In this document: one piece after another, positions 1-38,066 of the stretch
How positions within the stretch are numbered: the stretch's first letter is position 1
Layout of the letters: each line of letters starts with the position of its first letter
DNA from: a virus
Taxonomy: Duplodnaviria; Heunggongvirae; Uroviricota; Caudoviricetes
DNA length: 39,572 nucleotides
Virus record (IMG/VR): IMGVR_UViG_2531839178_000021
Location: 1 to 39,572 of that record
Direction: 5' to 3' (one strand)
Program-made: the position numbers and the translations under genes
The notes under the pieces: model-generated
Database searches by the model: none
What the model was told of the DNA's origin: nothing
The model's input: only the letters and a program-made list of their open reading frames with translations

Positions 1-17
1 TTAAGCGCAGCTATTTA
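1..17. mobile_element. Terminal 15 bp of an IS630-family element whose body lies upstream of the window, plus TA target duplicate
   Basis: bp 1-15 ttaagcgcagctatt is the exact reverse complement of the left terminus (29888-29902) of the complete IS630-like copy in this window; TA follows at 16-17 as at that copy's junctions. Confidence 0.8.
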
Positions 18-894
18 GTATCCGTTGTAGCGTGATAATACTTCCTCCATTAATCATGAAATGAGTGGCAAAGCTGTGCCTTAGTGCATGTGTGGCTTGC
101 CCCATTGGCAAATCCGGTTTTATTGCTTTCATTGTTCGTCTGAAGCGAGGGTAATCAGCATCAGGGAATAAAAAACCTCGTTTGTTATCCGCGATCATTT
201 TGGCAACAGCCTCTGAGATCGGGACGGTGCGTGGTTTGTTTGTTTTCGTTTTAACAAACGTGACGCGGTTATGGATGATATTTTCTGCTTTCAAACGAGC
301 TGCTTCTCCCCAACGTGCTCCAGTACTCAGGCAAAGAATCGCAATCTTTTTGTTGTCGCCGTCAAGAGCAGCAAGCAGTAAGGCAATTTCTTCCTGCGTG
401 AGATAGCCTGTGTCTGGTTTTTCCTCCTTAAGCCTTTTTGTCCCTCTGATAGGGTGCTCACCAAAGAATAACTCCGCTTCAATCAGGGCTGTAAACATGC
501 CGCTAATACATGTTAAATCACGATTGATACTCGAAGGTTTAATACCCTGACTTCTTCGGGTGGCGCAGTACTGGCTGATAAGCGATTTCGTAATTTGAAA
601 TGCGCATGGGTCATTCGTTATTTTTGTGAAGATTTCAATTTTTCCAAGATTAGATTTCCCATGCTCTTCGTGTTTACCCTTTAAATCCCACCAGATCTGT
701 GTCAGCTCCGACAGACGTCGCTTGTCTGTTGGTTTTGATAGCCATTCTTTATTGTGGTGGTTGTACAACGTGTATTTCTCGAAAGCGACAGCTTCGCTTT
801 TCTTATCAAACTTCCTACGGATGCGTTTTCCATTACGTCCAGTAGGGCGGATGTCCACTTCATATCGACCATCATCGAGTTTTTTGATTGCCAT
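1..894 (-). pseudogene. int: P2-type tyrosine integrase, truncated at its 3' end by the IS630 insertion; last codons (..NSCA stop) are IS-derived and the C-terminal catalytic Tyr region is absent
   Basis: 297-codon ORF beginning MAIKKLDDGRYEVDIRPTG; ends ..ALRHSFATHFMINGGSIITLQRIL then IS terminal repeat; no downstream LGH..Y motif. Confidence 0.85.
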
Positions 895-1009
895 CAGAAA
901 ACCCTCCGAGTGGTGTGTTTTTTTGCGACTACTAATCGCTTTTTTCGTGGTGGCTGAAATTTAGCCACCAATAGTAGGCACTTGTGATGAATATATTCAC
1001 GATGAATTG

Positions 1010-1309
1010 TTAACCAGTCTTTTGACCGGAGTGGGGCGACGTTGTTTCGTTTTGCCCAAAGTGTGCGAGAGCGGGCGCAATTTGCCCGGACTCAGGAGCG
1101 ACCTGATTGGTCATGAACCATAAAGTGTATTTGGTGAATTGTGGGGTCTGCAGGATGTTCATCATGACATCTGTTGGAGGTGTTGAACGACCACTTTCAT
1201 AGTAACTCAGCGTGCCATACGGAACCCCTGTTAAATCAGCAAGTTGTTGTCTGCTCAAATACTCTGATTTTCGCATTAAGACTATCTTCTCGCTTATCGT
1301 GTTTGACAT
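1010..1309 (-). CDS. C: Immunity repressor C (99 aa)
   Basis: 99-aa ORF MSNTISEKIVLMRKSEYLSRQQLADLTGVPYGTL with HTH; divergent from cox, as in P2. Confidence 0.9.
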   Translation of the reverse strand: MSNTISEKIVLMRKSEYLSRQQLADLTGVPYGTLSYYESGRSTPPTDVMMNILQTPQFTKYTLWFMTNQVAPESGQIAPALAHFGQNETTSPHSGQKTG

Positions 1310-1423
1310 GGTGTTTAGATCTCAATAGTATTTAGTTTAGATGTAGATTGTTTGGTGCTTGGATGTGGGCACTAAAAGGCATTATAAGGCATTAAACGCA
1401 ATTCATGAGGGCTGGAGGACGAC
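1310..1423. promoter_or_regulatory. Divergent Pc/Pe promoter-operator region of the lysogeny switch
   Basis: 114-bp intergenic region between divergent C and cox; TAGAT-containing direct repeats at about 1314-1320, 1336-1342 and 1344-1348 are candidate C operator half-sites. Confidence 0.5.
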
Positions 1424-1699
1424 ATGAGCAAGCAAGTAACACTCATGACTGATGCGATTCCTTATCAGGAGTTCGCAAAACTAATAGGAAAATCGACAGG
1501 AGCGGTTCGTCGGATGATCGATAAAGGAAAGCTGCCTGTAATTGATATGACCGATCCACAATCAGCTTCAGGTCGTGCAGGTGAATATTGGGTATACCTT
1601 CCGGCATGGAATAACGGACTAAAACTGGCTTATGAAAGCCGCCCTAAAGAGATTCGTGACGGCTGGTTGATGTGGTTAGGTCTCGGTGAACCACGTTAA
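1424..1699 (+). CDS. cox: Cox (excisionase / repressor of Pc), 91 aa
   Basis: ORF MSKQVTLMTDAIPYQEFAKLIGKSTGAVRRMIDKGKLP; first gene of early operon. Confidence 0.9.
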   Translation: MSKQVTLMTDAIPYQEFAKLIGKSTGAVRRMIDKGKLPVIDMTDPQSASGRAGEYWVYLPAWNNGLKLAYESRPKEIRDGWLMWLGLGEPR

Positions 1700-1709
1700 G
1701 GAGAACCGT

Positions 1710-1880
1710 ATGAATGAGCCTCGTTGTATTGCTCAGTTATTGCGTAACGAAAGCCCCAGGGCGATTGACTTTACCATCACCCACGGGAAGGGACGCAAGG
1801 GAATCATTATCCGCACCAAAAAACAGAGTCCGTTAAAGAAGGCTCTGACCTTTCTGAAAAGCCGGAGGGTCTGGAAATGA
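1710..1880 (+). CDS. Small early protein (P2 orf78-like)
   Basis: ATG at 1710 preceded by AAGGAG; occupies the position between cox and B. Confidence 0.6.
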   Translation: MNEPRCIAQLLRNESPRAIDFTITHGKGRKGIIIRTKKQSPLKKALTFLKSRRVWK

Positions 1881-2179
1881 CAGTGATGACGCTCAATCTC
1901 GTTGAAAAACAGCCAGCAGCTATGCGCCGGATAATTGGCAAGCATCTTGCCGTCCCTCGCTGGCAGGATACATGTGATTATTATAATCAGATGATGGAGC
2001 GCGAACGGCTAACGGTTTGCTTTCATGCACAGTTAAAACAGCGTCACGCAACGATGCGTTTTGAAGAAATGAACGACGTCGAACGTGAACGACTGGTATG
2101 TGCAATTGATGAATTGCGTGGCGCATTCTCAAAACGCCGTCAGGTTGGCGCAAGTGAGCATGCATATATTAGTTTTTTA
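1877..2179 (+). pseudogene. B: Replication gene B, 5' part (codons 1-101), interrupted by IS insertion
   Basis: ORF MTVMTLNLVEKQPAAMRRIIGKHLAVPRWQDTCDYYNQ runs into IS terminal repeat at 2180; removing the IS and one TA copy joins it in frame to 3098-3295, giving 166 codons. Confidence 0.85.
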
Positions 2180-2239
2180 GGCTGTGTCCCTTAATCATCT
2201 GAGCTATAGTAACTGTCTGTTTACACAACATATTGAACT

Positions 2240-2689
2240 ATGGCTCGCTACGACCTTCCCGATGAGGCATGGACCATCATCAAGCCCCTGTTACCTCCTG
2301 AACCCGCCACACCACGGGCCGGACGCCCATGGGCTGAGCACCGTAAAATCATCAATGGCATGTTCTGGGTGTTATGTTCCGGTGCACCATGGCGCGATTT
2401 ACCCGAACGATATGGGTCATGGAAAACTGTTTATAACCGCTTTAACCGATGGTCAAAGTCAGGCGTGATTAATATTATTTTCAACAGGTTGCTTTCGCTA
2501 CTTGATGCAAACGGCTTTATTGACTGGTCTGCCACCGCGCTGGATGGCAGTAATATCCGGGCGCTGAAATGTGCCGCCGGTGCTCAAAAAAACATCCCGA
2601 TATCGACGGAGATAATGGGCTGGGTCGCTCTCGCGGCGGTTTTGGCACCAAAATCCATCTGGCAACAGACGGAAGTGGCCTCCCGTTAA
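2240..2689 (+). CDS. IS transposase OrfA (DUF4096-like N-terminal part)
   Basis: MARYDLPDEAWTIIKPLLPPEPATPRAGRPWAEHRKIINGMFWVLCSGAPWRDLPERYGSWKTVYNRFNRW; A7 run at 2586-2592 places OrfB in the -1 frame. Confidence 0.8.
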   Translation: MARYDLPDEAWTIIKPLLPPEPATPRAGRPWAEHRKIINGMFWVLCSGAPWRDLPERYGSWKTVYNRFNRWSKSGVINIIFNRLLSLLDANGFIDWSATALDGSNIRALKCAAGAQKNIPISTEIMGWVALAAVLAPKSIWQQTEVASR

Positions 2690-3084
2690 ATATCGTGCTA
2701 AGCCCCGGACAAGCTCATGAAAGCCAGTTCGCGCAACGACTTCTGGACGGGATTGGCGTTCAGCGTCAGAACGGCAGCATGAAACGCCGTGGACATGCGG
2801 TACTGGCTGATAAAGCGTATTCAGGGCGCGCATTGCGCAACGAGCTGAAAAATAACGGTATAAAGGCAGTAATCCCCCGAAAGTCAAATGAGAAAATGGC
2901 ATCGGATGGACGTGCACAGCTTGATCGTGATGCGTACTGCAATCGTAATGTCGTTGAACGGTGCTTTGGGCGGCTGAAAGAATATCGCCGCATCGCCACG
3001 CGTTACGACAAAACGGCGAGAAATTACCTGGCGATGGTGAAACTGGGCTGCATCCGACTCTTTTATCAACGCTTACGTAATTAA
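2569..3084 (+). CDS. IS transposase OrfB (DDE catalytic part), expressed as OrfAB fusion by -1 frameshift
   Basis: ...ADKAYSGRALRNELKNNGIKAVIPRKSNE...NRNVVERCFGRLKEYRRIATRYDKTARNYL, IS4/IS5-superfamily C-terminal signature. Confidence 0.8.
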   Translation: MCRRCSKKHPDIDGDNGLGRSRGGFGTKIHLATDGSGLPLNIVLSPGQAHESQFAQRLLDGIGVQRQNGSMKRRGHAVLADKAYSGRALRNELKNNGIKAVIPRKSNEKMASDGRAQLDRDAYCNRNVVERCFGRLKEYRRIATRYDKTARNYLAMVKLGCIRLFYQRLRN

Positions 3085-3097
3085 GGGACACAGCCTA

Positions 3098-3295
3098 ACA
3101 GTCAGTCAGCGTCGTACTTTATTTATGCACGCCGGATTGACAGAAAAAGAATTTAATCAGCCATACTGGCGAATTAATGAAGAGTCATGTTACTGGCGTG
3201 ATGCTTTATTCCGTGCATTACGTGAATTATTCAGCCTGTTTGAGTATGCACCGACAATTCTGACGTCGGTAAAACCAGAGCAATATCTGCATTAA
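3098..3295 (+). pseudogene. B: Replication gene B, 3' part (65 codons) downstream of IS
   Basis: in-frame continuation TVSQRRTLFMHAGLTEKEFNQPYWRINEESCYWRDALFRALRELFSLFEYAPTILTSVKPEQYLH, stop 3293-3295. Confidence 0.8.
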
Positions 3296-3358
3296 GTAAT
3301 TAACCAGAGTTTTTAACGCACTTAATTGTGCGGGGCTTCTTTTTGCCTGGAGAAAGTC

Positions 3359-3583
3359 ATGCATACAGTTTCTGAAAATCAGTGCGGTAAATACGCATTA
3401 CTGCTGCAACAGGCCAGAACCGAAGCACAGGCCGACGCGGCGACGCGCTTTTCTTCTCATCTTGACGTCATGATTCGCCACATCACAAAGGCGGAGTTAT
3501 CCCGCGTGGAGATAGTCGAGCTGCTCAGTCAGGAGTCGGAAAAATTTCACAATATCGGATTGTCTCGCGGGGAGGTACTTTGA
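3359..3583 (+). CDS. Small early-operon protein (P2 orf80-like)
   Basis: ATG 3359 with GGAGAAAG upstream; [24 protein letters not shown]. Confidence 0.6.
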
Positions 3584-3882
3584 TGTCCTGCTCTCATTCA
3601 GTTGTATTACTGAATAACGCCTTAAAAATCGCCGTTATGAAAAATGGCGATTTGTCTCTTATTCAACTTTGTCTTGATAAAGAAAAACGCGACATCACTG
3701 AATCTGTTATCGCGATTTATCAGAATGAATTAAACCTCCTGTCTGATGTGGTCAATTTACTTGTTAAACGCGCTGTATTCCACAAGCAAATTTCCTCAGT
3801 GGATGAACTGACAAAATTAACGACAGAACTTGCCAGTTATTGCGCTGATGTATACAGGAAACTTAACGATAAAAGGAGCTGA
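3580..3882 (+). CDS. Small early-operon protein (P2 orf81-like)
   Basis: 100-aa ORF, start overlaps previous stop (ATGA). Confidence 0.6.
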
Positions 3883-3884
3883 TA

Positions 3885-4109
3885 ATGCCGGACAACGTAG
3901 ATTTTATTCAGGAACAACAGGCTGAATTACTGGAGCGCCAGATTAACGCGGCAAGGGTAAAACATTGCGGTGCTTCTGCGCTGGTTTGCGAAGAGTGTGA
4001 CGCGCCAATACCTGCTGCCCGTCGTGCGGCTTATCCGTCAGCCACGCGTTGTGTTTCCTGTCAGTCAGTCTTTGAAGCAAAAAATAAACATTACCGGAGA
4101 ACGGCATGA
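3885..4109 (+). CDS. Small C4 zinc-finger protein (TraR/DksA-like; P2 orf82-like)
   Basis: CEECDAPIPAARRAAYPSATRCVSCQ, a Cx2C..Cx2C motif. Confidence 0.65.
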   Translation: MPDNVDFIQEQQAELLERQINAARVKHCGASALVCEECDAPIPAARRAAYPSATRCVSCQSVFEAKNKHYRRTA

Positions 4110-4381
4110 GTATTCGTATTGAAATTGGCGAACGTTATGTCGTTACCAGTGACAGCTTCCAGTTTATTCTCCACGAGAAAAAGAGAGCGGAAAGCGGTAA
4201 AAACGCCGGTCAGGAATGGCTGGCGGTGGTTGGTTATTACCCGAAATTAAGCCAGCTTGTTTCCGGCCTGATGCATCACGATATTCTGACCGGAAGCGCA
4301 AAGTCTTTTGCTGATTTAAACGCGCAGGTTGAGCAACTCAGCAAGCGTTGTTCAGAGGCTTTTGGCTCATATGGCCGTTAA
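4106..4381 (+). CDS. Small early-operon protein (P2 orf83-like)
   Basis: 91-aa ORF MSIRIEIGERYVVTSDSFQFILHEKKRAESGKNAGQEW; translationally coupled. Confidence 0.6.
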   Translation: MSIRIEIGERYVVTSDSFQFILHEKKRAESGKNAGQEWLAVVGYYPKLSQLVSGLMHHDILTGSAKSFADLNAQVEQLSKRCSEAFGSYGR

Positions 4382-6653
4382 AGCCTCCGGGCGTTTTGTC
4401 CCTCCGTCAGCATTTGCTGCAGGCACCGGTAAGGCGTTTACCGGTGCTTATGCATGGAACGCGCCACGCGAGGCTGTCGGGCGCGAAAGACCCTTTACAC
4501 GTGACGAGATGCGTCAGGTGCAAGGTGTTTTATCCACGATTAACCGCCTGCCTTACTTTTTGCGCTCGCTGTTTACTTCACGCTATGACTACATCCGGCG
4601 CAATAAAAGCCCGGTACACGGGTTTTATTTCCTCACATCCACTTTTCAGCGTCGTTTATGGCCGCGCATTGAGCGTGTGAATCAGCGCCATGAAATGAAC
4701 ACCGACGCGTCGTTGCTGTTTCTGGCAGAGCGTGACCATTATGCGCGCCTGCCGGGAATGAATGACAAGGAGCTGAAAAGGTTTGCCGCCCGTATCTCAT
4801 CGCAGCTTTTCATGATGTATGAGGAACTCTGCGATGCCTGGGTGGATGCGCATGGCGAAAAAGAATCGCTGTTTACGGATGAGGCGCAGGCGCATCTGTA
4901 TGGTCATGTTGCTGGCGCTGCACGTGCTTTCAATATTTCCCCGCTTTACTGGAAAAAATACCGTAAAGGATAGATGACCACGAGGCAGGCATATTCTGCC
5001 ATTGCCCGTCTGTTTAACGATGAGTGGTGGACTCATCAGCTTAAAGGCCAGCGTATGCGCTGGCATGAGGCGTTATTGATAGCTGTCGGGGAGGTCAATA
5101 AAGACCGTTCTCCTTATGCCAGTAAACATGCCATTCGTGATGTGCGTGCGCGCCGTCAGGCAAATCTGGAGTTTCTTAAATCGTGTGACCTTGAAAACAG
5201 GGAAACCGGCGAACGCATCGACCTTATCAGTAAGGTGATGGGCAGTATTTCTAATCCTGAAATTCGCCGGATGGAGCTGATGAACACCATTGCCGGTATT
5301 GAGCGTTACGCCGCCGCAGAGGGTGATGTGGAGATGTTTATCACGCTGACCGCGCCGTCAAAGTATCACCCGACACGTCAGGTCGGAAAAGGCGAAAGTA
5401 AAACCGTCCAGCTTAATCACGGCTGGAATGATGAGGCATTTAATCCGAAGGATGCGCAGCGTTATCTCTGCCGTATCTGGAGCCTGATGCGCACGGCATT
5501 CAAGGATAATGATTTACAGGTCTACGGTTTGCGAGTCGTCGAGCCACACCACGACGGAACGCCGCACTGGCATATGATGCTTTTTTGTAATCCACGCCAG
5601 CGTAACCAGATTATCGAAATCATGCGTCGCTACGCGCTCAAAGAGGATGGCGACGAAAGAGGAGCTGCGCGAAACCGTTTTCAGGCAAAACACCTTAACC
5701 GGGGCGGTGCTGCGGGATATATCGCGAAATACATTTCAAAAAACATCGACGGCTATGCACTGGATGGTCAGCTCGATAACGATACCGGCAGGCCGCTGAA
5801 AGACACCGCCGCGGCTGTTACTGCATGGGCGTCAACGTGGCGCATCCCGCAATTTAAAACGGTTGGCCTGCCGACAATGGGGGCTTACCGTGAACTACGC
5901 AAATTGCCTCGCGGCGTCAGTATTGCTGATGAGTTTGACGAACGCGTCGAGGCTGCACGCGCTGCCGCAGACAGTGGTGATTTTGCGTTGTATATCAGCG
6001 CGCAGGGTGGGGCAAATGTTCCGCGCGATTGTCAGACTGTCAGGGTTGCCCGTAGTCCGTCGGATGAAGTTAACGAGTACGAGGAAGAAGTCGAGAGAGT
6101 GGTCGGCATTTACGCGCCGCATCTCGGCGCGCGTCATATTCATATCACCAGAACGACGGACTGGCGCATTGTTCCGAAAGTGCCGGTCGTTGAGCCTTTG
6201 ACTTTAAAAAGCGGCATCGCCGCGCCTCGGAGTCCTGTCAATAACTGTGGAAAGCTCACCGGTGGTGATACTTCGTTACCGGCTCCCACACCTTCTGAAC
6301 ACGCCGCAGCAGTGCTTAATCTGGTTGATGACGGTGTTATCGAATGGAATGACACGGAGGTCGTGAGGGCGCTCAGGGGCGCATTAAAACACGGCCTGAG
6401 AAGACCAAACCGTCAGCAAAGAAACGGAAGCCCGTTAAAACCGCATGAAATAGCGCCATCGGCCAGACTGACCCGGTCGGAAAGAATGCAAATTACCCGT
6501 ATCCGCGTTGACCTTGCTCAGAACGGTATCAGGCCGCAGCGATGGGAGCTTGAGGCGCTGGCGCGTGGTGCGACCGTAAATTACAACGGGAAAAAATTTA
6601 CGTATCCGGTCGCTGATGAGTGGAGTTGGTTTTATTGTTATTCAGAGCAATAA
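4371..6653 (+). pseudogene. A: Replication initiation protein A (rolling-circle nickase), 761 codons, interrupted by an in-frame TAG at 4971-4973
   Basis: ORFs 4329-4973 and 4974-6653 are in the same frame separated only by TAG; combined span from ATG 4371 matches the recalled 761-aa length of P2 gpA; HUH-like region ..PHWHMMLF.. and GYIAKYISK present. Confidence 0.8.
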
Positions 6654-6769: not shown

Positions 6770-6922
6770 ATGAATGATATCTTTGTTCTTACAAGGGAAG
6801 AGCTTGAAACACTAGATTATAGTGTTTTTATGCATATACCAGTTACATTTCATGCACATAAAATAAAAAATATCTGGATGGGATTGCTGAATCATCAGAA
6901 AACCCCAAAGAGAAAAAATTAG
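6770..6922 (+). CDS. Cargo locus ORF segment 1 (frame 2), possibly the N-terminus of one larger gene
   Basis: ATG 6770 with AAGGTG 7 nt upstream; low-GC; frame-1 ORF opens at 6862 overlapping this segment across A6 runs (6865-6870, 6913-6918). Confidence 0.45.
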   Translation: MNDIFVLTREELETLDYSVFMHIPVTFHAHKIKNIWMGLLNHQKTPKRKN

Positions 6923-6936
6923 CATCTCTTTTTGGT

Positions 6937-7242
6937 ATGCTATATAGTTTCAATTTGCAAGTTGTTAACAACACTCCATCATTTGAACCCCAAATGATTT
7001 GGGGTAATAAAAGATCAATATTGCCTGAAGATTTTGATGAGCAGGTGAATGACTGTCTTTTATATGTTTCTCAAAAAATAACCAATCCATTTTTGTTATC
7101 AAGAATATATGATGTTGTTTGGTGTAATAATCGGAAAAATAAAGACGTGGCAATTAAAGCAATTGATTCCTATGCTGAAATGCTAAATATAGCAATTGAA
7201 AAGCTAATAATAAAAACGAAAGCATGGATGAAAGTGATTTAA
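6937..7242 (+). CDS. Cargo locus ORF segment 2 (frame 1), hypothetical
   Basis: 101-aa ORF MLYSFNLQVVNNTPSFEPQMIWGNKRS...; overlaps segment 3 by 19 nt across an A5 run (7212-7216). Confidence 0.45.
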   Translation: MLYSFNLQVVNNTPSFEPQMIWGNKRSILPEDFDEQVNDCLLYVSQKITNPFLLSRIYDVVWCNNRKNKDVAIKAIDSYAEMLNIAIEKLIIKTKAWMKVI

Positions 7243-8600
7243 ATTGCTTTATTTTTGCTCGTGATTATATTGCTAGGGCTTTGCACATTAATAAAATGGT
7301 CTACCCTAGAAAATCAGAAGGAAACATGGCGATTAAAAATGCCATTCATTCTCTTTATAGTATTCAAAATGAAAGATTAATCTTTGAAGGTTTCAATAAT
7401 TTGACTTGGTTTATGGTGCGTGATTTTGATGGGTATAATCTGCAGTATGCGGAAAATGCTGAGAAGATGGCTGAGCAGCATAAAGATAAAAAATATTATG
7501 ATGCTGTAAAATCACTTTATATGACAAGTGCAGTTATTTATGAAAAAAATGGTGAGTATGAACGTGCCAAGAGATGTAAACTGGCATCTGCAAATATTAC
7601 TATTAAAGTTGCAACAGATCGACCTGATAATATGGGTAAGATCTCTTGGTTAAGAACAGCTATCTCTGAATTAAGACAGTACGGTGGTGATAGCCAACAG
7701 ATAGAAGATTTAAAGGAACAACTTGCTAATTTGAGAGAAGAAGTAAGGAGTGAATATGTCACTTTAAGCCATTCTATTGATATTAGTGACTTGGTTGCTG
7801 AAAGTGAAAAAAAACTGACGGGGCGTTCTTTGCCCGATATATTCAAAGTTTTAATGCGTGAAACACCGATTGAAAATATTGAAAGCATGAGGGAACAAGT
7901 TTTAAGATTATCAGAAAAAAGTTTATTCTCTAGTTTTGTTGGAACAGAAATTAATGATGAGAGTGGGCGTAAGATATATACAATCCCGCCGTTGGATAAT
8001 AAAAAAGATATGAGTGATGATGTTGTTATTGATCAATATCTAAGAAATTTCGAGATTACTCATAAGATTTTTGTAAACGGTGTCTTTGAACCTGCTCGCT
8101 ATGTACTTTCTCAAGAACATGGCTTGACGTTGTCAACATTCGTTAAATTGGTTACAACTAGTCCAATTGTCAAGCCGGAGTTTAGGGAGATTTTTAATTT
8201 GGGCTTTTACAAATTATGGCAGGGAGATTACATCAGTGCAGCTTATCTTTTAATACCACAAATGGAGGGTATGGTTCGTTATTATTATGAGCTTAGTGGA
8301 AAGGATGCTACTAGATATTTGGATAAGGGATTAGAGGAGTCAACAAGTATTTCTCAGCTTCTAGATAAATGCAGAGATGATTTGGAAAGTATCTTTTCTA
8401 AAAATCTTGTTTTGACTATCGATGTTCTTTTTAACAGAAAGAGTGGGGCAACCTTAAGACATAAATTAGCACATGGTAATTTATATACTAATGCTTGTTA
8501 CGATGAAACAACGACATATGCATGCATCCTGATTTTCTTTCTGTGTGCTTATCCTCTCCTACCATATTTTGATACTGTTTTTGAACAGGGCTCTGTTTGA
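7224..8600 (+). CDS. Cargo protein, 458 aa, unknown function with C-terminal HEPN-like R-x4-H motif; candidate abortive-infection/defence effector
   Basis: low-GC ORF; motif RHKLAHG encoded at 8457-8477; coiled-coil-like EDLKEQLANLREEVRSEY; no Walker A, so not an Old-type ATPase. Confidence 0.6.
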   Translation: MDESDLNCFIFARDYIARALHINKMVYPRKSEGNMAIKNAIHSLYSIQNERLIFEGFNNLTWFMVRDFDGYNLQYAENAEKMAEQHKDKKYYDAVKSLYMTSAVIYEKNGEYERAKRCKLASANITIKVATDRPDNMGKISWLRTAISELRQYGGDSQQIEDLKEQLANLREEVRSEYVTLSHSIDISDLVAESEKKLTGRSLPDIFKVLMRETPIENIESMREQVLRLSEKSLFSSFVGTEINDESGRKIYTIPPLDNKKDMSDDVVIDQYLRNFEITHKIFVNGVFEPARYVLSQEHGLTLSTFVKLVTTSPIVKPEFREIFNLGFYKLWQGDYISAAYLLIPQMEGMVRYYYELSGKDATRYLDKGLEESTSISQLLDKCRDDLESIFSKNLVLTIDVLFNRKSGATLRHKLAHGNLYTNACYDETTTYACILIFFLCAYPLLPYFDTVFEQGSV

Positions 8601-12772: not shown

Positions 12773-12845
12773 CCGGCGTCAGTCAGTCCGGGAAAACCTT
12801 CACGATTAACCCTTAATTTCAGGAAAAACTATGCGCCAGGAAACC

Positions 12846-14271
12846 TAATGCCGATCAGTTAAGGATCAGTTGACCGATCCAGTGGCTGTGTAAGAATCCG
12901 GAAACGCTCACTTGTTTCCGGATTTTTTTATGCACATTGGACAGGCTCTTGATCTGGTATCCCGTTACGATTCTCTGCGTAACCCACTGACTTCTCTGGG
13001 GGATTACCTCGACCCCGAACTCATCTCTCGTTGCCTTGCCGAATCAGGTACTGTAACGCTACGCAAGCGCCGTCTTCCCCTCGAAATGATGGTCTGGTGT
13101 ATTGTTGGCATGGCGCTTGAGCGTAAAGAACCTCTTCACCAGATTGTGAATCGCCTGGACATCATGCTGCCGGGCAATCGCCCCTTCGTTGCCCCCAGTG
13201 CCGTTATTCAGGCCCGCCAGCGCCTGGGAAGTGAGGCTGTCCGCCGCGTGTTCACGAAAACAGCGCAGCTCTGGCATAACGCCACGCCGCATCCGCACTG
13301 GTGCGGCCTGACCCTGCTGGCCATCGATGGTGTGTTCTGGCGCACACCGGATACACCAGAGAACGATGCAGCCTTCCCCCGCCAGACACATGCCGGGAAC
13401 CCGGCGCTCTACCCGCAGGTCAAAATGGTCTGCCAGATGGAACTGACCAGCCATCTGCTGACGGCTGCAGCCTTCGGCACGATGAAGAACAGCGAAAATG
13501 AGCTTGCTGAGCAACTTATAGAACAAACCGGCGATAACACTCTGACGTTAATGGATAAAGGTTATTACTCACTGGGACTGTTAAATGCCTGGAGCCTGGC
13601 GGGAGAACACCGCCACTGGATGATACCTCTCAGAAAGGGAGCGCAATATGAAGAGCTCAGAAAACTGGGTAAAGGCGATCATCTGGTGAAGCTGAAAACC
13701 AGCCCGCAGGCACGAAAAAAGTGGCCGGGACTGGGAAATGAAGTGACAGCCTGCCTGCTGACCGTGACGCGCAAAGGAAAAGTCTGCCATCTGCTGACGT
13801 CGATGACGGACGCCATGCGCTTCCCCGGAGGAGAAATGGCGGATCTGTACAGTCATCGCTGGGAAATCGAACTGGGATACAGGGAGATAAAACAGACGAT
13901 GCAACTGAGCAGGCTGACGCTGAGAAGTAAAAAGCCGGAGCTTGTGGAGCAAGAGCTGTGGGGTGTCTTACTGGCTTATAATCTGGTGAGATATCAGATG
14001 ATTAAAATGGCGGAACATCTGAAAGGTTACTGGCCGAATCAACTGAGTTTCTCAGAATCATGCGGAATGGTGATGAGAATGCTGATGACATTGCAGGGCG
14101 CTTCACCGGGACGTATACCGGAGCTGATGCGCGATCTTGCAAGTATGGGACAACTTGTGAAATTACCGACGAGAAGGGGAAGGGCCTTCCCGAGAGTGGT
14201 AAAGGAGAGGCCCTGGAAATACCCCACAGCCCCGAAAAAGAGCCAGTCAGTTGCTTAACTGACTGGCATTA
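12846..14271 (+). mobile_element. IS4, 1426 bp, with 13-bp target-site duplication gcgccaggaaacc
   Basis: ends taatgccgatcagttaag ... cttaactgactggcatta; identical 13-mers at 12833-12845 and 14272-14284. Confidence 0.9.
12930..14258 (+). CDS. insG: IS4 transposase (442 aa)
   Basis: [71 protein letters not shown]. Confidence 0.9.
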
Positions 14272-15346
14272 GCGCCAGGAAACCCGCTTTAAATTTAATG
14301 CCTACCTGTCCCGTGTTGCCGAACTGAACGGCATCGACGCCGGTGATGTGTCGAAAAAATTCACCGTTGAACCGTCGGTCACCCAGACCCTGATGAACAC
14401 CATGCAGGAGTCCTCTGACTTTCTGACCCGCATCAACATTGTGCCGGTCAGCGAAATGAAAGGGGAAAAAATTGGCATCGGTGTCACCGGCTCCATCGCC
14501 AGCACCACCGACACCGCCGGTGGGACTGAGCGTCAGCCGAAGGACTTCTCGAAGCTGGCGTCTAACAAGTACGAATGCGACCAGATTAACTTCGATTTTT
14601 ATATCCGCTACAAAACGCTTGACCTGTGGGCGCGTTATCAGGATTTCCAGCTCCGTGTCCGTAACGCCATTATCAAACGCCAGTCCCTTGATTTCATCAT
14701 GGCCGGTTTTAACGGCGTGAAGCGTGCCGAAACTTCTGACCGCAGCAGCAATCCGATGTTGCAGGATGTGGCGGTCGGCTGGTTGCAGAAATACCGCAAT
14801 GAAGCCCCGGCGCGCGTGATGAGCAAGGTCACTGACGAGGAAGGGCGCACCACCTCTGAGGTTATCCGCGTGGGTAAGGGCGGCGATTATGCCAGCCTTG
14901 ATGCACTGGTGATGGATGCGACCAACAACCTGATTGAACCGTGGTATCAGGAAGACCCTGACCTTGTGGTGATTGTGGGACGTCAGCTACTGGCGGACAA
15001 GTATTTCCCCATCGTCAACAAAGAGCAGGACAACAGCGAAATGCTGGCCGCTGATGTCATCATCAGCCAGAAACGCATCGGTAACCTGCCGGCGGTACGC
15101 GTCCCGTACTTCCCGGCGGATGCGATGCTCATCACGAAGCTGGAAAACCTGTCCATCTACTACATGGATGACAGCCATCGCCGCGTGATTGTGGAAAACC
15201 CGAAACTCGACCGCGTGGAGAACTACGAGTCAATGAACATTGATTACGTGGTGGAAGACTATGCCGCCGGTTGTCTGGTGGAGAAAATTAAGGTCGGTGA
15301 TTTCTCCACACCGGCTAAAGCGACCGCAGAGCCGGGAGCGTAACCG

Positions 15347-15640
15347 ATGACGAGTCCCGCACAGCGCCACATGATGCGGGTCTCGGCAGCGATGACCGCG
15401 CAGCGGGAAGCCGCCCCGCTGCGACATGCAACTGTCTATGAGCAGATGCTGGTTAAGCTCGCCGTAGACCAGCGCACACTGAAAGCAATTTATTCAAAAG
15501 AGCTGAAGGCCGCGAAAAAACGCGAACTGCTGCCGTTCTGGTTGCCGTGGGTGAATGGCGTGCTGCCGCACGGCACCGCCGTCGAACTGCCCGACGTTCA
15601 GACCGCGCCCGTGGCTGAAACTGTCAATCTGTGGGAGTAA
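15347..15640 (+). other. 97-codon ORF, probably an in-frame fusion remnant of terminase small subunit M (5' part) and tail protein X (3' end) left by deletion of most of M, all of L and most of X
   Basis: only ~300 bp separate N stop (15343) from holin Y start (15644), where P2 order N-M-L-X-Y needs ~1.4 kb; the M and X assignments of the two halves are from memory. Confidence 0.5.
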
Positions 15641-22860: not shown

Positions 22861-22931
22861 TTCAGAAAGATCAGAACGGTGCGGATATCCCTGATAAAGA
22901 ACGCTTCCTGAGTAACATTAGGCTGTGTCCC

Positions 22932-23444
22932 TTAATTACGTAAGCGTTGATAAAAGAGTCGGATGCAGCCCAGTTTCACCATCGCCAGGTAATTTCTCGC
23001 CGTTTTGTCGTAACGCGTGGCGATGCGGCGATATTCTTTCAGCCGCCCAAAGCACCGTTCAACGACATTACGATTGCAGTACGCATCACGATCAAGCTGT
23101 GCACGTCCATCCGATGCCATTTTCTCATTTGACTTTCGGGGGATTACTGCCTTTATACCGTTATTTTTCAGCTCGTTGCGCAATGCGCGCCCTGAATACG
23201 CTTTATCAGCCAGTACCGCATGTCCACGGCGTTTCATGCTGCCGTTCTGACGCTGAACGCCAATCCCGTCCAGAAGTCGTTGCGCGAACTGGCTTTCATG
23301 AGCTTGTCCGGGGCTTAGCACGATATTTAACGGGAGGCCACTTCCGTCTGTTGCCAGATGGATTTTGGTGCCAAAACCGCCGCGAGAGCGACCCAGCCCA
23401 TTATCTCCGTCGATATCGGGATGTTTTTTGAGCACCGGCGGCAC
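22932..23444 (-). CDS. IS transposase OrfB (copy 2)
   Basis: same protein as 2569-3084 apart from the N-terminal residues at the A-run. Confidence 0.75.
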   Translation of the reverse strand: MPPVLKKHPDIDGDNGLGRSRGGFGTKIHLATDGSGLPLNIVLSPGQAHESQFAQRLLDGIGVQRQNGSMKRRGHAVLADKAYSGRALRNELKNNGIKAVIPRKSNEKMASDGRAQLDRDAYCNRNVVERCFGRLKEYRRIATRYDKTARNYLAMVKLGCIRLFYQRLRN

Positions 23445-23775
23445 ATTTCAGCGCCCGGATATTACTGCCATCCAGCGCGGTGGCAGACCAGTCAATAAAG
23501 CCGTTTGCATCAAGTAGCGAAAGCAACCTGTTGAAAATAATATTAATCACGCCTGACTTTGACCATCGGTTAAAGCGGTTATAAACAGTTTTCCATGACC
23601 CATATCGTTCGGGTAAATCGCGCCATGGTGCACCGGAACATAACACCCAGAACATGCCATTGATGATTTTACGGTGCTCAGCCCATGGGCGTCCGGCCCG
23701 TGGTGTGGCGGGTTCAGGAGGTAACAGGGGCTTGATGATGGTCCATGCCTCATCGGGAAGGTCGTAGCGAGCCAT
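23401..23775 (-). CDS. IS transposase OrfA (copy 2); with A6 the OrfB frame is +1 rather than -1
   Basis: MARYDLPDEAWTIIKPLLPP...AQKTSRYRRR stop. Confidence 0.7.
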   Translation of the reverse strand: MARYDLPDEAWTIIKPLLPPEPATPRAGRPWAEHRKIINGMFWVLCSGAPWRDLPERYGSWKTVYNRFNRWSKSGVINIIFNRLLSLLDANGFIDWSATALDGSNIRALKCAAGAQKTSRYRRR

Positions 23776-24682
23776 AGTTCAATATGTTGTGTAAACAGAC
23801 AGTTACTATAGCTCAGATGATTAAGGGACACAGCCTAGTGTTTTTTATGTTGAAGCCAGAGCTTTCCCTGTACAAATTCTTGCAGAGGAAGGGCTAACGG
23901 TTATTGTTCCGACAGAGGATTATGTCGTCGGTCAAACGACATATAAGTGGGGGGCAACTAATCCCGCTACAGAAAGCACGAACGCACAGGCTATTCTGGA
24001 TTTTAAAAATGGACGTGGTTATTACTGTTCACATCCATTTATTTCCAGCCTTTCAGGAAATGCTGCAACAGCAACGAAGTTAGCGAACGCAAGAAATATT
24101 AATGGTGTCAGATTTGATGGCTCTGCCGATATAAATATTAATACACTGGTATCCAGAAACCGTGTTACTGCATTAGGTGGGAGCGTAAAGGGGACACCAG
24201 GTATTCAGATGTATGAGGCATACAACAATGGCTACCCAACAGCCTATGGTAATGTGCTTCATCTCACTGGCGTAACCGCAGTAGGAGAGGGTGAGTTACT
24301 TATTGGTTGGAGTGGAACCAGCGGTGCTCATGCTCCGGCATATATTCGTTCCCGACGAGATACCACAGATGCTAACTGGTCTGGATGGGCGCAACTATAT
24401 ACAACTGCTCATAAACCCTCAGCGGGAGATGTTGGTGCATACACCAAAACTGAGTCAGATTCACGTTATGTGAGAGACATGCGGCTGGGCGGTGCATCTA
24501 CATATAAACCAGCAAATAATGGTACTACATGGACGCATCAGGCTCCGTCAGGTTGCGTATATACCGGCATTATTGTTCAGGATACCGGCTCAAACTCTGC
24601 CGATAACATTGGTGGCGTATATTACAGACCGGTGCAGAAATACATTAACGGGACATGGTATAACGTGGTGCAGGTATAATTT

Positions 24683-25259: not shown

Positions 25260-25298
25260 GTCCGCTCTGTGCCAGGAGCAGACATTGCCAACGTTATG
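25260..25298 (+). repeat. ~39-bp direct repeat, copy A (partner at 27932-27970)
   Basis: gtccgctctgtgccaggagcagacattgccaacgttatga versus gttcgctttgtgccaggagcggacgttgccagcattgag, ~85 percent identity. Confidence 0.7.
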
Positions 25299-25677
25299 AC
25301 CCTCGATTACATCAAAGAGCCCTATAGCCGAAACCTGCACCATAGCCATCTCTGTAGAATTCGTCCTAGGGGCTTTTAACAGACCTAGTTGTATGGATCG
25401 GAAGGAAATATTAAAGCTCAAGGCGTCAGTCCAGTGCTGTCCTGTTTGCTTACCACACGAAAGAGTGCTGCTTGTACCTGCTAACTAATGGTATGCGGAG
25501 TGAGGGGGGCGGGTAGAACCAAAAGCACTTACTACGTGTGGCGCTCTCCTGGAAGAGGAGACGTCGAAGTGATAACGCTAACAACAGTCTTACTGGTGAT
25601 GCAAATAATGCTAGCTGGTCTGGTTGCCATCAAGCAACTGACCGGACGCCCGTAAGGGATGGAGGAACTTGATTAAA

Positions 25678-25707
25678 GGCAGGGGGGTTACCTCCCCTGC
25701 CTTTTTC
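25678..25707 (+). terminator. Strong rho-independent terminator
   Basis: GGCAGGGG-ggttacct-CCCCTGCC followed by TTTTT; lies ~470 nt downstream of G stop with no ORF of 60 aa or more between. Confidence 0.75.
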
Positions 25708-25769
25708 GTTTCTGCGCAAGTTAGCTCTGTTATTATAATCCTTACTCACACTGTAAGGACATAGTTCAA

Positions 25770-26033
25770 ATGACTGAATGGCTTAATGCACATTTTGGTG
25801 CAGACGCAGCTACCTATCTTAGCTTATTAGTCGGCGTACTGGCACTGTTTGGTATTGGGGGCGGTGTTACATATAGAATCAGACAGCAAAACAACATAAA
25901 ACAGAAGGCAAAGAAAACCGAGGGTGATGTGAACCAGGCCGGGCGGGATATTAATCAGACCACCAACGTTTACCACACATCCAATGAATCTACTGAGGAC
26001 CCTGTAAAAAAAAGCAAGATGAACATGATCTGA
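25770..26033 (+). CDS. Membrane-anchored hypothetical protein, N-terminal segment (single TM helix)
   Basis: TATAAT at 25734-25739; MTEWLNAHFGADAATYLSLLVGVLALFGIGGGV; ORF ends just after an A8 run (26006-26013) where the next ORF's frame opens. Confidence 0.55.
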   Translation: MTEWLNAHFGADAATYLSLLVGVLALFGIGGGVTYRIRQQNNIKQKAKKTEGDVNQAGRDINQTTNVYHTSNESTEDPVKKSKMNMI

Positions 26034-26056
26034 AGATAATCGACCAGATCCTTGAA

Positions 26057-26452
26057 TTGCTGCCTTATGAGGATACTACTCAATGGGTTGAGCAGAGCTA
26101 CCTGAGCGGTATACGGCAAGATGTTTGCTTAAACATTGAAAAAGCTGAAAAATTTAGCGGTGAAAAGTATCGGTTATTCAATACTGAAGTGAATGGTGCG
26201 AAAGACGCTTTTTTGGACGCTATGACCGCATACGTAGATAGTACGCTACCATTTATGAGTGTTGATTACCCGAACAGAAAGCCAGTGATGCTAAGCCTTC
26301 CCCATGACTGGAAGAGTAAGAGTGTTGAATCGGAGGCAAACTTCCGCTTTCATCAGCAAAATGTGCGTGAAACATCGGGGGGGATGATTGCGCGCTATGA
26401 GGATTTTGTCAGGACATTTAAGGCTCATGGATTCATAAGCGATAAACTGTAA
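26057..26452 (+). CDS. Hypothetical protein segment lacking an ATG start; probably the C-terminal part of one ~227-aa gene 25770-26452 broken by a 1-nt deletion
   Basis: frame open from 25997; ORF-track start is TTG; frame offset from 25770 is of deletion type. Confidence 0.5.
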   Translation: MLPYEDTTQWVEQSYLSGIRQDVCLNIEKAEKFSGEKYRLFNTEVNGAKDAFLDAMTAYVDSTLPFMSVDYPNRKPVMLSLPHDWKSKSVESEANFRFHQQNVRETSGGMIARYEDFVRTFKAHGFISDKL

Positions 26453-26545
26453 AGGCGCAGTGGGTCAGCGAACACCGCAACGACAGAACCGCGTAAGCGG
26501 TAAAATCAGCTTGTTAACTGGCGAGTTTATAGCCGTCCCTCCGGG

Positions 26546-27846
26546 CTGAGGGATCCCCACAAAATTACTGCTAATAAACCAGTACCATATTTCGGTAGGT
26601 TCTGGACAGATGGTTTAGAACTGTGCTCAGTACTGTTCGTCTTAAAATAAGTGGCGAGTGTCGAAGAACATTCTTCGCTAACGTCAGATATGAGATAACC
26701 CGCCGGGATTTAATGCTGTTAGCCTGATATTTCAGGTGTAACCCTTTATTTTCAGCGTGATAACCGAGTAACCACATTACGATAGTGCTCAACGTTGCCA
26801 GCAGACTCAGAACCAGAATTCTTCCTGTTGAACGACTTTTGCTGGCCCGAAGACCAAATCCGAAGCGCCCGTTCTTTTCATCACGAAAGTTTTGCTCTAT
26901 CTGCATTCGCCGACTGTATAACTTGATGATTTCTCGCGCTCTGAAGTCATTTGTACTGCTGAAGATCAACCAGGCTTCTTTTGCTGATTTGCTCTGTTCT
27001 TTGTCTGTTTTGTTTAAACCACTCTGACCTTTCGAACGTTTCTTTTTTCGCCCTTTTGCCGATTTCTTATAGGTGTAAAAATGCCCCCGGATGCTTTTTT
27101 TCCTTTCTTTAACCAGCCTTCCAGCCCCCATATATTCCGGTGTTTTACATTCAGGGCTATCCGACACTTTTAACCATCTTTCAGGCGCGTTATCGAGGCA
27201 ATACTGAACGTTATTTCTGATCCGACCAATAAAATCCCAGCCCAGAGAAGTAATATGGTGAAACCATGCGCTCTGAAATCCAGCATCCGTGACAATAATA
27301 ACCCTGGCATCGGGGGGCAGGGATTGAGCAAGGGAATCAAGGAAATCATGTTGTATCAATGGATTATTTTGTTTTTCAGAAGGAACAACCTTACTCAATA
27401 ACGGAATGGAACGCCCGTCACACAGAAGGCTGGCACGAAGAACATGATGCTCCTGGGAGGGATAGCCACTCCAGTCTACGGCTATTACACATAAAGATAA
27501 CTGCCGTGTCAGCATTGAAGTGATATTCCTGAAAATCATTGGAATATCGCGATGGAGCGCCTCATTACCCATGAGGCGATCAATACGTTTGCTCTTATTC
27601 TTAACTTGTGCATTACCCGGGAAAAAACGTCCGATACTGGTCAGCGTCAGAGATGCTCCGTTGATTAACGCCACTGTGGCATCCATCAGGGCATTTTGTC
27701 GGTACTGATGAAATGGTGCTAAGGCATCCCGGAAGAAATTCTGACATACTTTATGAACAGGCATAGCAGTGATCTCATTGAATTGTTGGCACAAATCAGT
27801 AGATCACATAATGCTATGTCTGTCTCGTTTTCTGGGAATTCCTCAG
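26546..27846 (-). mobile_element. IS10-like (IS4-family) insertion sequence, ~1.3 kb, with 9-bp target-site duplication CCCTCCGGG
   Basis: ends CTGAGGGATCCCC (26546-) and its reverse complement (-27846); identical 9-mers at 26537-26545 and 27847-27855. Confidence 0.8.
26571..27764 (-). CDS. IS10-like transposase (~397 aa)
   Basis: KRIDRLMGN, VDWS, VLRAS, TDAGFQSAWF, SLGW, SKGRKKKRS, SAKEAW, IKLYSRRMQIEQNFRD, FGLRAS: motifs shared with the IS10 transposase. Confidence 0.8.
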   Translation of the reverse strand: MPVHKVCQNFFRDALAPFHQYRQNALMDATVALINGASLTLTSIGRFFPGNAQVKNKSKRIDRLMGNEALHRDIPMIFRNITSMLTRQLSLCVIAVDWSGYPSQEHHVLRASLLCDGRSIPLLSKVVPSEKQNNPLIQHDFLDSLAQSLPPDARVIIVTDAGFQSAWFHHITSLGWDFIGRIRNNVQYCLDNAPERWLKVSDSPECKTPEYMGAGRLVKERKKSIRGHFYTYKKSAKGRKKKRSKGQSGLNKTDKEQSKSAKEAWLIFSSTNDFRAREIIKLYSRRMQIEQNFRDEKNGRFGFGLRASKSRSTGRILVLSLLATLSTIVMWLLGYHAENKGLHLKYQANSIKSRRVISYLTLAKNVLRHSPLILRRTVLSTVLNHLSRTYRNMVLVY

Positions 27847-27931
27847 CCCTCCGGGGCGGCTTTTTTATGACTATAATCGACAGAATCACCTGAACGTCCA
27901 GGTGGGTTTCCCTGACAGGACGTCAAGGAAT

Positions 27932-27970
27932 GTTCGCTTTGTGCCAGGAGCGGACGTTGCCAGCATTGAG
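27932..27970 (+). repeat. ~39-bp direct repeat, copy B (partner at 25260-25298)
   Basis: see copy A. Confidence 0.7.
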
Positions 27971-28116
27971 TTTTCAGTTTTCAAAGGTATATCTTTAGAT
28001 TTAGTTCACTTAGAATGAGCGTGTTAAAGTTTTCGGTTATGTGAGTATATTGAACATAACAAATAAACAATAATTTTTGTATTCCATTTAGGATATAAAA
28101 AAGAGGGATTTGAGTT

Positions 28117-28902
28117 ATGTACGATTATAGTTTTTTACTTACTCCATCTACAGGATTTGTTAAAGGATTATGTGGAGTTTGGTCGAATGATTTCTCTATA
28201 AATGATGATTCTGACTCTGATTTAGGGCAAACAGATATTCATTTACTTTCATCTCCTCATTTGAATATCATATCCGACCCAAATGAATTGGCTTCCAAGT
28301 TAAAAGGTTTGTTGATGCTCATGAACGGCGCACTTAGCGTTCTTTATGGTTTTGAAAGATATCAATCTTTTGGTCCTCTTTCTATTTCTGGAAGTGAAGG
28401 CATTAATTACTCGGAAATATGCGGCTTTAAATCAATGGATGTAACTCAGGTAAACCCCTTTAATTTCCATGACATACAGCAACCACACCCTCGCGCTGAT
28501 AATTTTTCACGATTAATTAATTTATCATCTAAACATGAATCCTTACGTGTTGTTTTAGGTATGTGTGCCTTAGGTTATGATTGGGTTAATCTTTATCGTT
28601 TGTGGGAAACAATTAGAGAATATGTATATGATAAATATGTGAAAGGTATACTAAATTTCCCCGACGCTTATAAAGGCAAGAAATATCAGAGAGATAAAGT
28701 AATTAGCATGGCTTTTAATATTGATGAAAAGGAAATCAGCAGATTCACGGGCACTGCTAATAGCTTTGAACTGTTAGGGTATCTTGCGAGACATGGAAAG
28801 GGAAGTTCCGGAGGGATATTAAAAAATCCGATGTCAAGAGTTGACGCAAGCATTTTCGTACACAAAGCAACTTACAAATATTGTAAGTTATTTTTGATGT
28901 AA
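28117..28902 (+). CDS. Hypothetical cargo protein (261 aa), unknown function
   Basis: low-GC ORF with AAGAGGGA RBS; no recognisable motif. Confidence 0.6.
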   Translation: MYDYSFLLTPSTGFVKGLCGVWSNDFSINDDSDSDLGQTDIHLLSSPHLNIISDPNELASKLKGLLMLMNGALSVLYGFERYQSFGPLSISGSEGINYSEICGFKSMDVTQVNPFNFHDIQQPHPRADNFSRLINLSSKHESLRVVLGMCALGYDWVNLYRLWETIREYVYDKYVKGILNFPDAYKGKKYQRDKVISMAFNIDEKEISRFTGTANSFELLGYLARHGKGSSGGILKNPMSRVDASIFVHKATYKYCKLFLM

Positions 28903-29004
28903 GTAAAAAGTTGAAGCTATAATACTCAAAGTATCGAAAACTACGTTCGTCGTGCACTCGAAAACAATATGCTTATTGTGTCTGCACTAATTACTCAAGG
29001 TCCG

Positions 29005-29041
29005 AGAAAAATGGCGAAGCTCATCTTTTTCAGGCTTCGCC
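29005..29041 (-). terminator. Hairpin terminator between the convergent genes 28117-28902 and 29064-29816
   Basis: GGCGAAGC-13 nt loop-GCTTCGCC; on the minus strand followed by ATTTTT. Confidence 0.5.
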
Positions 29042-29063
29042 AACTTGAGTTATTGGTTAAAAT

Positions 29064-29816
29064 TCATTTAGGAATAATAGAATGCAATTCGTGACTCACC
29101 TGGATTTCATAGTGTTTCAATAGTTCTCCGATGTTAATTCCTACTACCTTACGAACTGCGCCGAGGGAGAAGTTAAGCTCCTCAATGCCCGGCCGATCTG
29201 GCGTTGAATTCATATAGTGTCGGCACGCACGGACAATTGACTCGACGATCAACGATAGCGGAGACTCAGGTGCAATCTCGGAGCGAATCGCCGTAAGAGA
29301 GAGTCGGAGCTCCTTCAAAGAATCCGAGACTCGTGCTGGATCCTCTTGAGCATATGGCAGATAAAGAGAACTCTTGTCTTCCAATAAATGGATCAACCGC
29401 AGAGCAATTTTCTCGTCTGGGCGATGCGATAGAAATTGAAACATTAGCCTCTTTCCTCCCTCCAAGCACTCCTTCATTAGTGATTCGTGGTCACGTTTCC
29501 ATTTTCGCAAATACTCGGCGGGGTAGCCCATACCGCCATTCTTATCAACTAAATCAGCACAAGCTCCGCACAACCATATAGCATTTTTTATGCTCTTCCG
29601 CTCTGTTTCTGACTGAGACATGTCATAGCGCGGTCCGCCAGGGCTCGCCGCGCAGATATGCGCCGCCTCACCCGTCTTGATAGAAAGATTTTCCGCCAAT
29701 TGATCCGGGCCGATTGTTACCCTATGACAAGAGGGATTGCTACAAATATATGTAGCGCGCTCTGCTACCTTACCTACAACGCTTGGAGGAAAGTTGTGCC
29801 TATTTGTCTTGGTCAT
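29064..29816 (-). CDS. Hypothetical protein with N-terminal Cys/His cluster resembling an HNH/His-Me-finger nuclease motif
   Basis: YICSNPSCH ... AAHICAASPGG ... NAIWLCGACADLVD; mid-GC; the IS630 copy lies ~70 bp upstream of its start. Confidence 0.45.
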   Translation of the reverse strand: MTKTNRHNFPPSVVGKVAERATYICSNPSCHRVTIGPDQLAENLSIKTGEAAHICAASPGGPRYDMSQSETERKSIKNAIWLCGACADLVDKNGGMGYPAEYLRKWKRDHESLMKECLEGGKRLMFQFLSHRPDEKIALRLIHLLEDKSSLYLPYAQEDPARVSDSLKELRLSLTAIRSEIAPESPLSLIVESIVRACRHYMNSTPDRPGIEELNFSLGAVRKVVGINIGELLKHYEIQVSHELHSIIPK

Positions 29817-29887
29817 AAAAGTTATGCTTCTTTGTTTTTTTCATCTATGTGGGGAGAATAAAATCATACTTTTTATATCTGATCCTA

Positions 29888-31041: not shown

Positions 31042-31214
31042 TAGGTCTGACCAGCAACCTATTGATCAAAAAACCAAGATATTAGCTAAAAAAATCAGCA
31101 TACTTGAGACCAAGCTCAATGTCCGCTCCTCGCTCAAAGCAGACTGTCAGATTTGATAGCATTTGGGCTATGTAAATTGTCAGGCGGAAAATGAGTGAGT
31201 ACAAATCAGGACAG

Positions 31215-38039: not shown

Positions 38040-38066
38040 AAAAAATAAGCCCGTGTAAGGGAGATT
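38040..38066. other. attR: attR: 27-bp P2-type attachment core at the prophage/host junction
   Basis: AAAAAATAAGCCCGTGTAAGGGAGATT matches the recalled P2 att core; lies between ogr and the host gene. Confidence 0.7.

Follow-up and report, generated by a model that had tools for sequence, protein, structure and literature searches.

A P2-like prophage of Shigella boydii 965-58 carries its replication gene B in two pieces, separated by a 916-bp insertion sequence (IS) of the IS5 family that closely resembles ISSfl7 and lies between two copies of the dinucleotide TA. The window analysed here, which is the whole stretch of 39,572 nt, is identical to contig AKNA01000058.1 of assembly GCA_000268145.1 (compared over 12,194 nt, with 0 mismatches), with the prophage located at the yegR/yegQ site of its host. 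We consider it close to certain that the interruption arose by simple transposition of the ISSfl7-like element into B, in the course of neutral, IS-driven decay, and none of the results of the analyses run contradicts this explanation. The transposase would depend on a -1 frameshift at the heptamer A AAA AAC, joining the DNA-binding product of orfA (DUF4096) to the DDE catalytic domain encoded by orfB; the element sits in a YTAR target of which the central TA is duplicated, and it cuts gpB after residue 101.

The interrupted gene and its empty sites

A re-reading of the sequence places the element at positions 2180-3095 on the plus strand, with the left TA at 2178-2179 and the right TA at 3096-3097, exactly as an earlier note on this DNA had positioned them. 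Joining 1877-2179 to 3098-3295 across one TA yields, as that note had claimed, an in-frame open reading frame of 501 nt encoding 166 amino acids and a stop codon; the frame is lost if both TAs are kept or both are removed. That note had taken the gene for B of phage P2 and 166 codons for the length of P2 B, and both identity and length prove right: P2 B occupies 26458-26958 of NC_001895 and likewise comprises 501 nt and 166 aa. Alignment with P2 gpB, which the earlier note had named as the comparison able to overturn its reading, runs from end to end without gaps. The restored product and gpB (NP_046790.1) are identical at 164 of 166 residues, with the replacements C61R and Y95H and 14 differences at the nucleotide level. 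R61 and H95 set the restored allele apart from that of P2, and both are also present in intact E. coli prophage alleles that match it at 100% of DNA positions.

The surroundings of the gene are collinear with P2 on either side of the element: blastn aligns window positions 16-2179 with P2 24597-26760 and positions 3096-6623 with P2 26759-30286. The two P2 segments overlap by exactly 2 bp (26759-26760, TA), which indicates a 2-bp target duplication. Among phage records, the restored B protein has 76 matches, 75 of which cover at least 80% of it; a single match falls below 95% identity. PHROG 235 covers it over its full length (E=2.6e-104, residues 1-166 on positions 3-168 of 168). A profile search of the local Pfam and NCBIfam copies returned no match to the restored protein; in the precomputed Pfam annotation, PF26815 (Phage_RepB) is assigned to both B fragments as called. 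The identity of restored B is settled by PHROGs and by the direct alignment to P2.

The 5' part of the gene (1877-2179, plus strand; codons 1-101) is collinear with P2 26458-26760 and the 3' part (3098-3295, plus strand; codons 102-166 and the stop) with P2 26761-26958. The target TA corresponds to the second and third bases of codon 101 (TTA). As encoded, the truncated reading frame (1877-2194, plus strand) specifies 105 aa, namely 101 aa of gpB followed by GCVP from the end of the IS, and this product has the protein record EIQ29148.1, titled "replication gene B domain protein [Shigella boydii 965-58]". The 3' remnant, called as a 56-aa ORF, is the second of the fragments carrying PF26815. 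P2 B is intact and is cut in S. boydii 965-58 after codon 101; length, neighbours and order of the restored gene are those of P2, with C, cox, orf78, B, a terminator-like hairpin, orf80-83 and A in succession; in the early operon, B has cox/orf78 on one side and orf80 on the other. A predicted Pe-like early promoter at 1303-1331 (plus strand), with the consensus match TTGACA-17-TAGTAT located where Pe is annotated in P2, would drive cox, orf78 and B, and the hairpin 3' of B (3317-3332, plus strand) corresponds in position to the putative P2 terminator at 26980-27007. According to the annotation of the P2 record (NC_001895), gpB is essential for DNA replication and is required for lagging-strand synthesis. 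The insertion would be expected to abolish gpB function and probably has a polar effect on the early operon under Pe.

Unoccupied versions of the site are common. With a 2,501-nt query across the locus, both flanks were matched in 1,718 of 5,426 complete E. coli genomes, and among the matches listed the flanks are joined over exactly 1,583 bp, that is, 2,501 - 916 - 2. In none of the 5,426 genomes is B occupied by the insertion. P2 and the empty sites have a single TA, TTTTTTAACAGTC; an example of an empty site reads ...TATTAGTTTTTTAACAGTCAG..., again with one TA. As TA is its own complement, a single occupied copy does not distinguish between TA as the end of the IS and TA as a duplication; empty sites with exactly one TA fix the net gain at 918 bp under either reading. 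The restored 501-nt ORF is covered over at least 80% of its length in 1,665 complete E. coli genomes, and in at least 12 of them an intact B is 100.0% identical to it. Both halves of B are thus unchanged relative to alleles that are intact elsewhere, and the description of the insertion as clean stands.

The inserted element and its sister copies

The element begins with the 15-bp terminal inverted repeat GGCTGTGTCCCTTAA (2180-2194, plus strand) and ends with its perfect complement (3081-3095, minus strand). By chance, 0.05 occurrences of this 15-mer would be expected in the window; there are four, at the ends of two IS copies, and the excess shows that the structure is not a product of chance. 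The transposase gene (2240-3084, plus strand) consists of orfA (2240-2689) and an orfB frame (2569-3084), which overlap over 2569-2689. A slippery heptamer, A AAA AAC, lies within the overlap at 2587-2593 (plus strand), inside an A7 run at 2586-2592, and a -1 frameshift at this point gives an uninterrupted fused translation of 281 aa. The product of orfA matches DUF4096 (PF13340, E=1.5e-30) and that of orfB matches DDE_Tnp_1 (PF01609, E=2e-21). The NCBIfam profile NF033580 (transpos_IS5_3), for which the curated cut-off is 110 bits, scores 319.1 bits against the fused transposase (residues 3-275 on positions 2-257 of 258). Together with the perfect 15-bp inverted repeats and the 2-bp TA duplication relative to the empty site, these matches bear out the assignment to the IS5 family made in the earlier note.

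Within the family, ISfinder describes the IS427 group by a length of ~0.8-1 kb and a target duplication of 2-4 bp. With overlapping ORFs, a -1 frameshift site, 916 bp and a 2-bp duplication, the element belongs by architecture and by these ISfinder values to the IS427 group. Members of this group, such as IS1248, have two overlapping ORFs in a frameshift-dependent layout, and resemble the present element in their small size, their conserved frameshift motif and a DDE triad that is complete only in the fusion (PMC3281130).

Full-length copies (916 bp) with 99.8-99.9% identity are found in chromosomes of EIEC-type E. coli and on pINV plasmids, where PGAP names the product 'IS5-like element ISSfl7 family transposase'. 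The name ISSfl7 is taken here from that annotation, the present copy differing from a PGAP-named one at 2 of 916 nt. PGAP also records a programmed frameshift on near-identical copies, as two joined pieces totalling 845 nt. We considered whether the two-ORF structure of the transposase is a mutational break and rejected this reading: the A7 run is present in all six other 916-bp copies examined, five of which are annotated with the programmed frameshift. Identical ISSfl7-like copies occupy several different sites, and the transposase of the B copy may be active at present. All eight copies examined are flanked as YTA|IS|TAR, which defines the target as YTAR with duplication of its central TA; at the insertion in B the target is T-TA-A. 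The orfA protein is identical to a 'Transposase' of S. boydii ATCC 9905, and its 90%-identity cluster includes ORF1 of ISSfl1 and orfA of IS1650. ISSfl7 and these relatives in Shigella and EIEC share the inverted repeats, the A7 frameshift site and the YTAR target with TA duplication.

A second ISSfl7-like copy lies in inverted orientation in the tail-fibre gene H (22921-23835, minus strand), also between two TAs. Removal of this copy together with one TA regains a single H reading frame of 595 aa. The copy in H is the same as that in B except for a run of A6, not A7, at the frameshift site; taken at face value, A6 would place orfB beyond the reach of a -1 shift, and the shorter run may reflect a sequencing error in the homopolymer. 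A third, partial copy is situated upstream of gatZ on the same contig (L002, 1-311). The three copies are identical save for this one homopolymer length, and all have a T at position 2938 or its equivalent where the copies of E. coli and EIEC have C. T2938 produces the replacement R234C, adjoining the Y of the Y-x-x-R-x-x-x-E-x6-K signature. Since this private SNP separates the three copies of the contig from other ISSfl7 copies, we infer that the insertion in B stems from an expansion of the IS within the S. boydii lineage.

As a side observation, the genome NZ_CP065615.1 (E. coli FDAARGOS_943) matches ISSfl7 32 times on the chromosome and 4 times on plasmids, and encodes the same orfA protein that has been deposited for S. 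boydii ATCC 9905. By these two features it looks Shigella-type, though it is labelled E. coli.

Other lesions and cargo of the prophage

The prophage is dead; counting the insertion in B, it has at least six lesions. Gene A (4371-6653) has an amber codon at 4971-4973 (Q201, CAG to TAG relative to P2), which splits it into ORFs of 200 aa and 559 aa; the same mutation is found in at least 11 contigs of other read sets. The major capsid gene N is split at its very start by a 1,426-bp IS4 (12846-14271) with a 448-aa ORF containing Nterm_IS4 and DDE_Tnp_1 domains, and the copies of its 13-bp target duplication, GCGCCAGGAAACC, occupy 12833-12845 and 14272-14284. At 15560-15565, P2 positions 5376-6631 are missing across the 6-bp microhomology GTGCTG; this deletion removes the 3' part of M (terminase small subunit), all of L and the 5' part of X, and its junction occurs in none of the 5,426 complete E. 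coli genomes. The integrase gene is truncated at the left edge of the window (1-15), where its product follows P2 Int up to residue 293 (of 337), then diverges and terminates in NSCA, without the C-terminal YAHF region. The break adjoins an IS630-like element with HTH_23 and DDE_3 ORFs (L002, 7088-8124). attL is absent; the attR core is retained near 38040-38066, beside yegQ (Peptidase_U32, 38211-39572). The insertion in B would, on our reading, be one step of drift-driven decay, beside the loss of A, N, M-L-X, int and H.

The old/tin hotspot (window 6770-8600; L008, 3702-5533) differs in content from P2: of two adjacent ORFs, one of 349 aa with DUF7380 corresponds to the N-terminal half of the PADLOC model PDC-S39 (E=5e-31) and one of 248 aa to its C-terminal half (E=2e-45). 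This model describes a single-protein candidate defence system, and the matching gene appears split even in an Illumina-based assembly. At the Z/fun hotspot (window 25286-31122) P2 sequence is replaced by ~5.8 kb, including a gene at 29064-29816 (minus strand) for a 250-aa protein with an HNH-endonuclease-like N-terminus that matches PADLOC PDC-M68A (E=7e-24). The replacement also holds unannotated ORFs of 261 aa and 131 aa, a 407-aa DDE_Tnp_1 transposase (26571-27794) and an IS630-like HTH ORF (30200-30940).

Reality, age and meaning of the insertion

The junctions between B and the IS are present in assemblies of independent read sets. The left junction is found without mismatch in contig L003 (seven samples) and in L004, and the right junction, equally without mismatch, in L008 and five similar places, in L010 and in L011. 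This argues that the insertion is real, is not an artefact of a single assembly and is fixed in a lineage. In a contig set that represents each species by one genome, the 30-nt left junction has no exact match; the carrier strain is not the genome chosen for its species. Over 7.9 kb shared with the independent, Illumina-based contig L008, the window shows no substitutions and four single-base differences in homopolymer length, at 6864, 7211, 7807 and 9959. They alter gene calls (349 or 101 aa for the DUF7380 protein, 344 or 329 aa for the portal protein) and are probably 454-type errors of the draft.

Could the two junctions belong to different IS copies, as in a rearrangement or composite, that the assembler collapsed into one 916-bp element? 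The short-read contigs do break within the IS, those from the left stopping 25 bp into it and those from the right starting 26-27 bp into it, so that a single copy linking both junctions is seen only in the window's own assembly; this is a draft with homopolymer errors, of a genome with several identical IS copies. Against these points, at both junctions the IS meets B at one and the same TA, in the right relative orientation and with a matching 2-bp duplication, the prophage is collinear with P2 on either side, and several independent read sets contain these junctions. The arrangement is explained most economically by a simple insertion, and we regard an artefact as very improbable. The age of the insertion allows more latitude. 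The earlier note had called it recent, and the absence of substitutions in 501 nt, together with the identity of the IS copies, may point that way on a scale of sequence divergence; the date is loosely constrained, as 501 nt is too short for dating and carriers occur in ~10 or more read sets from several projects. It is possible, although we doubt it, that the insertion is old and predates the diversification of its S. boydii carrier clade. This would fit the recurrence of the same junctions across those projects, and also the linkage to the lesion in A: every A-amber contig that reaches B carries the IS, and no contig combines the amber codon with an intact B. Yet neither half of B has acquired a substitution relative to extant alleles, the three IS copies of the contig differ by one homopolymer length only, and the carriers are very closely related, with no mismatches over 7.9 kb in related contigs. 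Neither among contigs of other read sets nor among complete E. coli genomes did we find a relative in which this prophage has an unoccupied B; the closest prophage in the complete genomes is 98.1% identical. Between 'old' and 'recent' the difference is here one of degree only.

As to its cause, the inactivation might have been adaptive, with knockouts of B, A and int selected because they lock a useful prophage, bearing defence cargo in its hotspots, in place. All three of these replication and excision genes are indeed broken, and hotspot cargo matches the candidate defence models PDC-S39 and PDC-M68A. However, the PDC-S39-like gene is itself in two ORFs, the structural genes N, M-L-X and H are broken too, as would be expected of indiscriminate decay, and gene disruption by ISs has previously been reported in S. 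boydii (PMC4374849); we therefore find selection for such knockouts unlikely. The two ISSfl7 copies at 2180-3095 and 22921-23835 form an inverted pair that flanks 19.8 kb of prophage DNA, comprising gene A, the PDC-S39-like cargo of the old/tin hotspot, cos, and head and baseplate genes. That this pair serves as a composite transposon moving hotspot cargo independently, or that the insertion in B is in itself a selected lock on the prophage, strikes us as scarcely credible. Simple insertion, as one step in neutral decay, remains our preferred explanation.

The statement of the earlier note that excision would restore the B reading frame holds for the sequence; as a route of reversion it is implausible. 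Precise excision of bacterial ISs, as studied with Tn5 and Tn10, is rare and independent of transposase, and it depends on slippage from one copy of the duplicated target to the other. A repeat of 2 bp and inverted repeats of 15 bp should make it negligible as a physical event. In addition, IS1248 of the IS427 group forms cointegrates, which implies replicative transposition without excision from the donor (PMC3281130). Restoration of the B reading frame would in any case not revive the phage, since the lesions in A, N, M-L-X, int and H would remain.

There is a direct precedent for the event: ISSfl7 interrupts fimD in S. boydii CIP52-54 (PMC4374849). The same IS, in the same species, inactivated a gene there by simple insertion; the target was a fimbrial gene, whereas here it is a prophage replication gene, and no new principle is involved. 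The interruption of B is ordinary IS-mediated pseudogenisation in Shigella, of an already known kind, in which a known IS has entered a known phage gene. Its importance beyond annotation is small; the locus is a textbook case of IS-driven prophage decay in Shigella. A single pseudogene, interrupted by an IS, is the proper annotation for the 105-aa product EIQ29148.1 and the 56-aa remnant. For the element, the clean pair of empty and filled sites fixes the YTAR target of ISSfl7 and its 2-bp TA duplication, and for the host, the junctions might be used to mark the lineage of this S. boydii clade.
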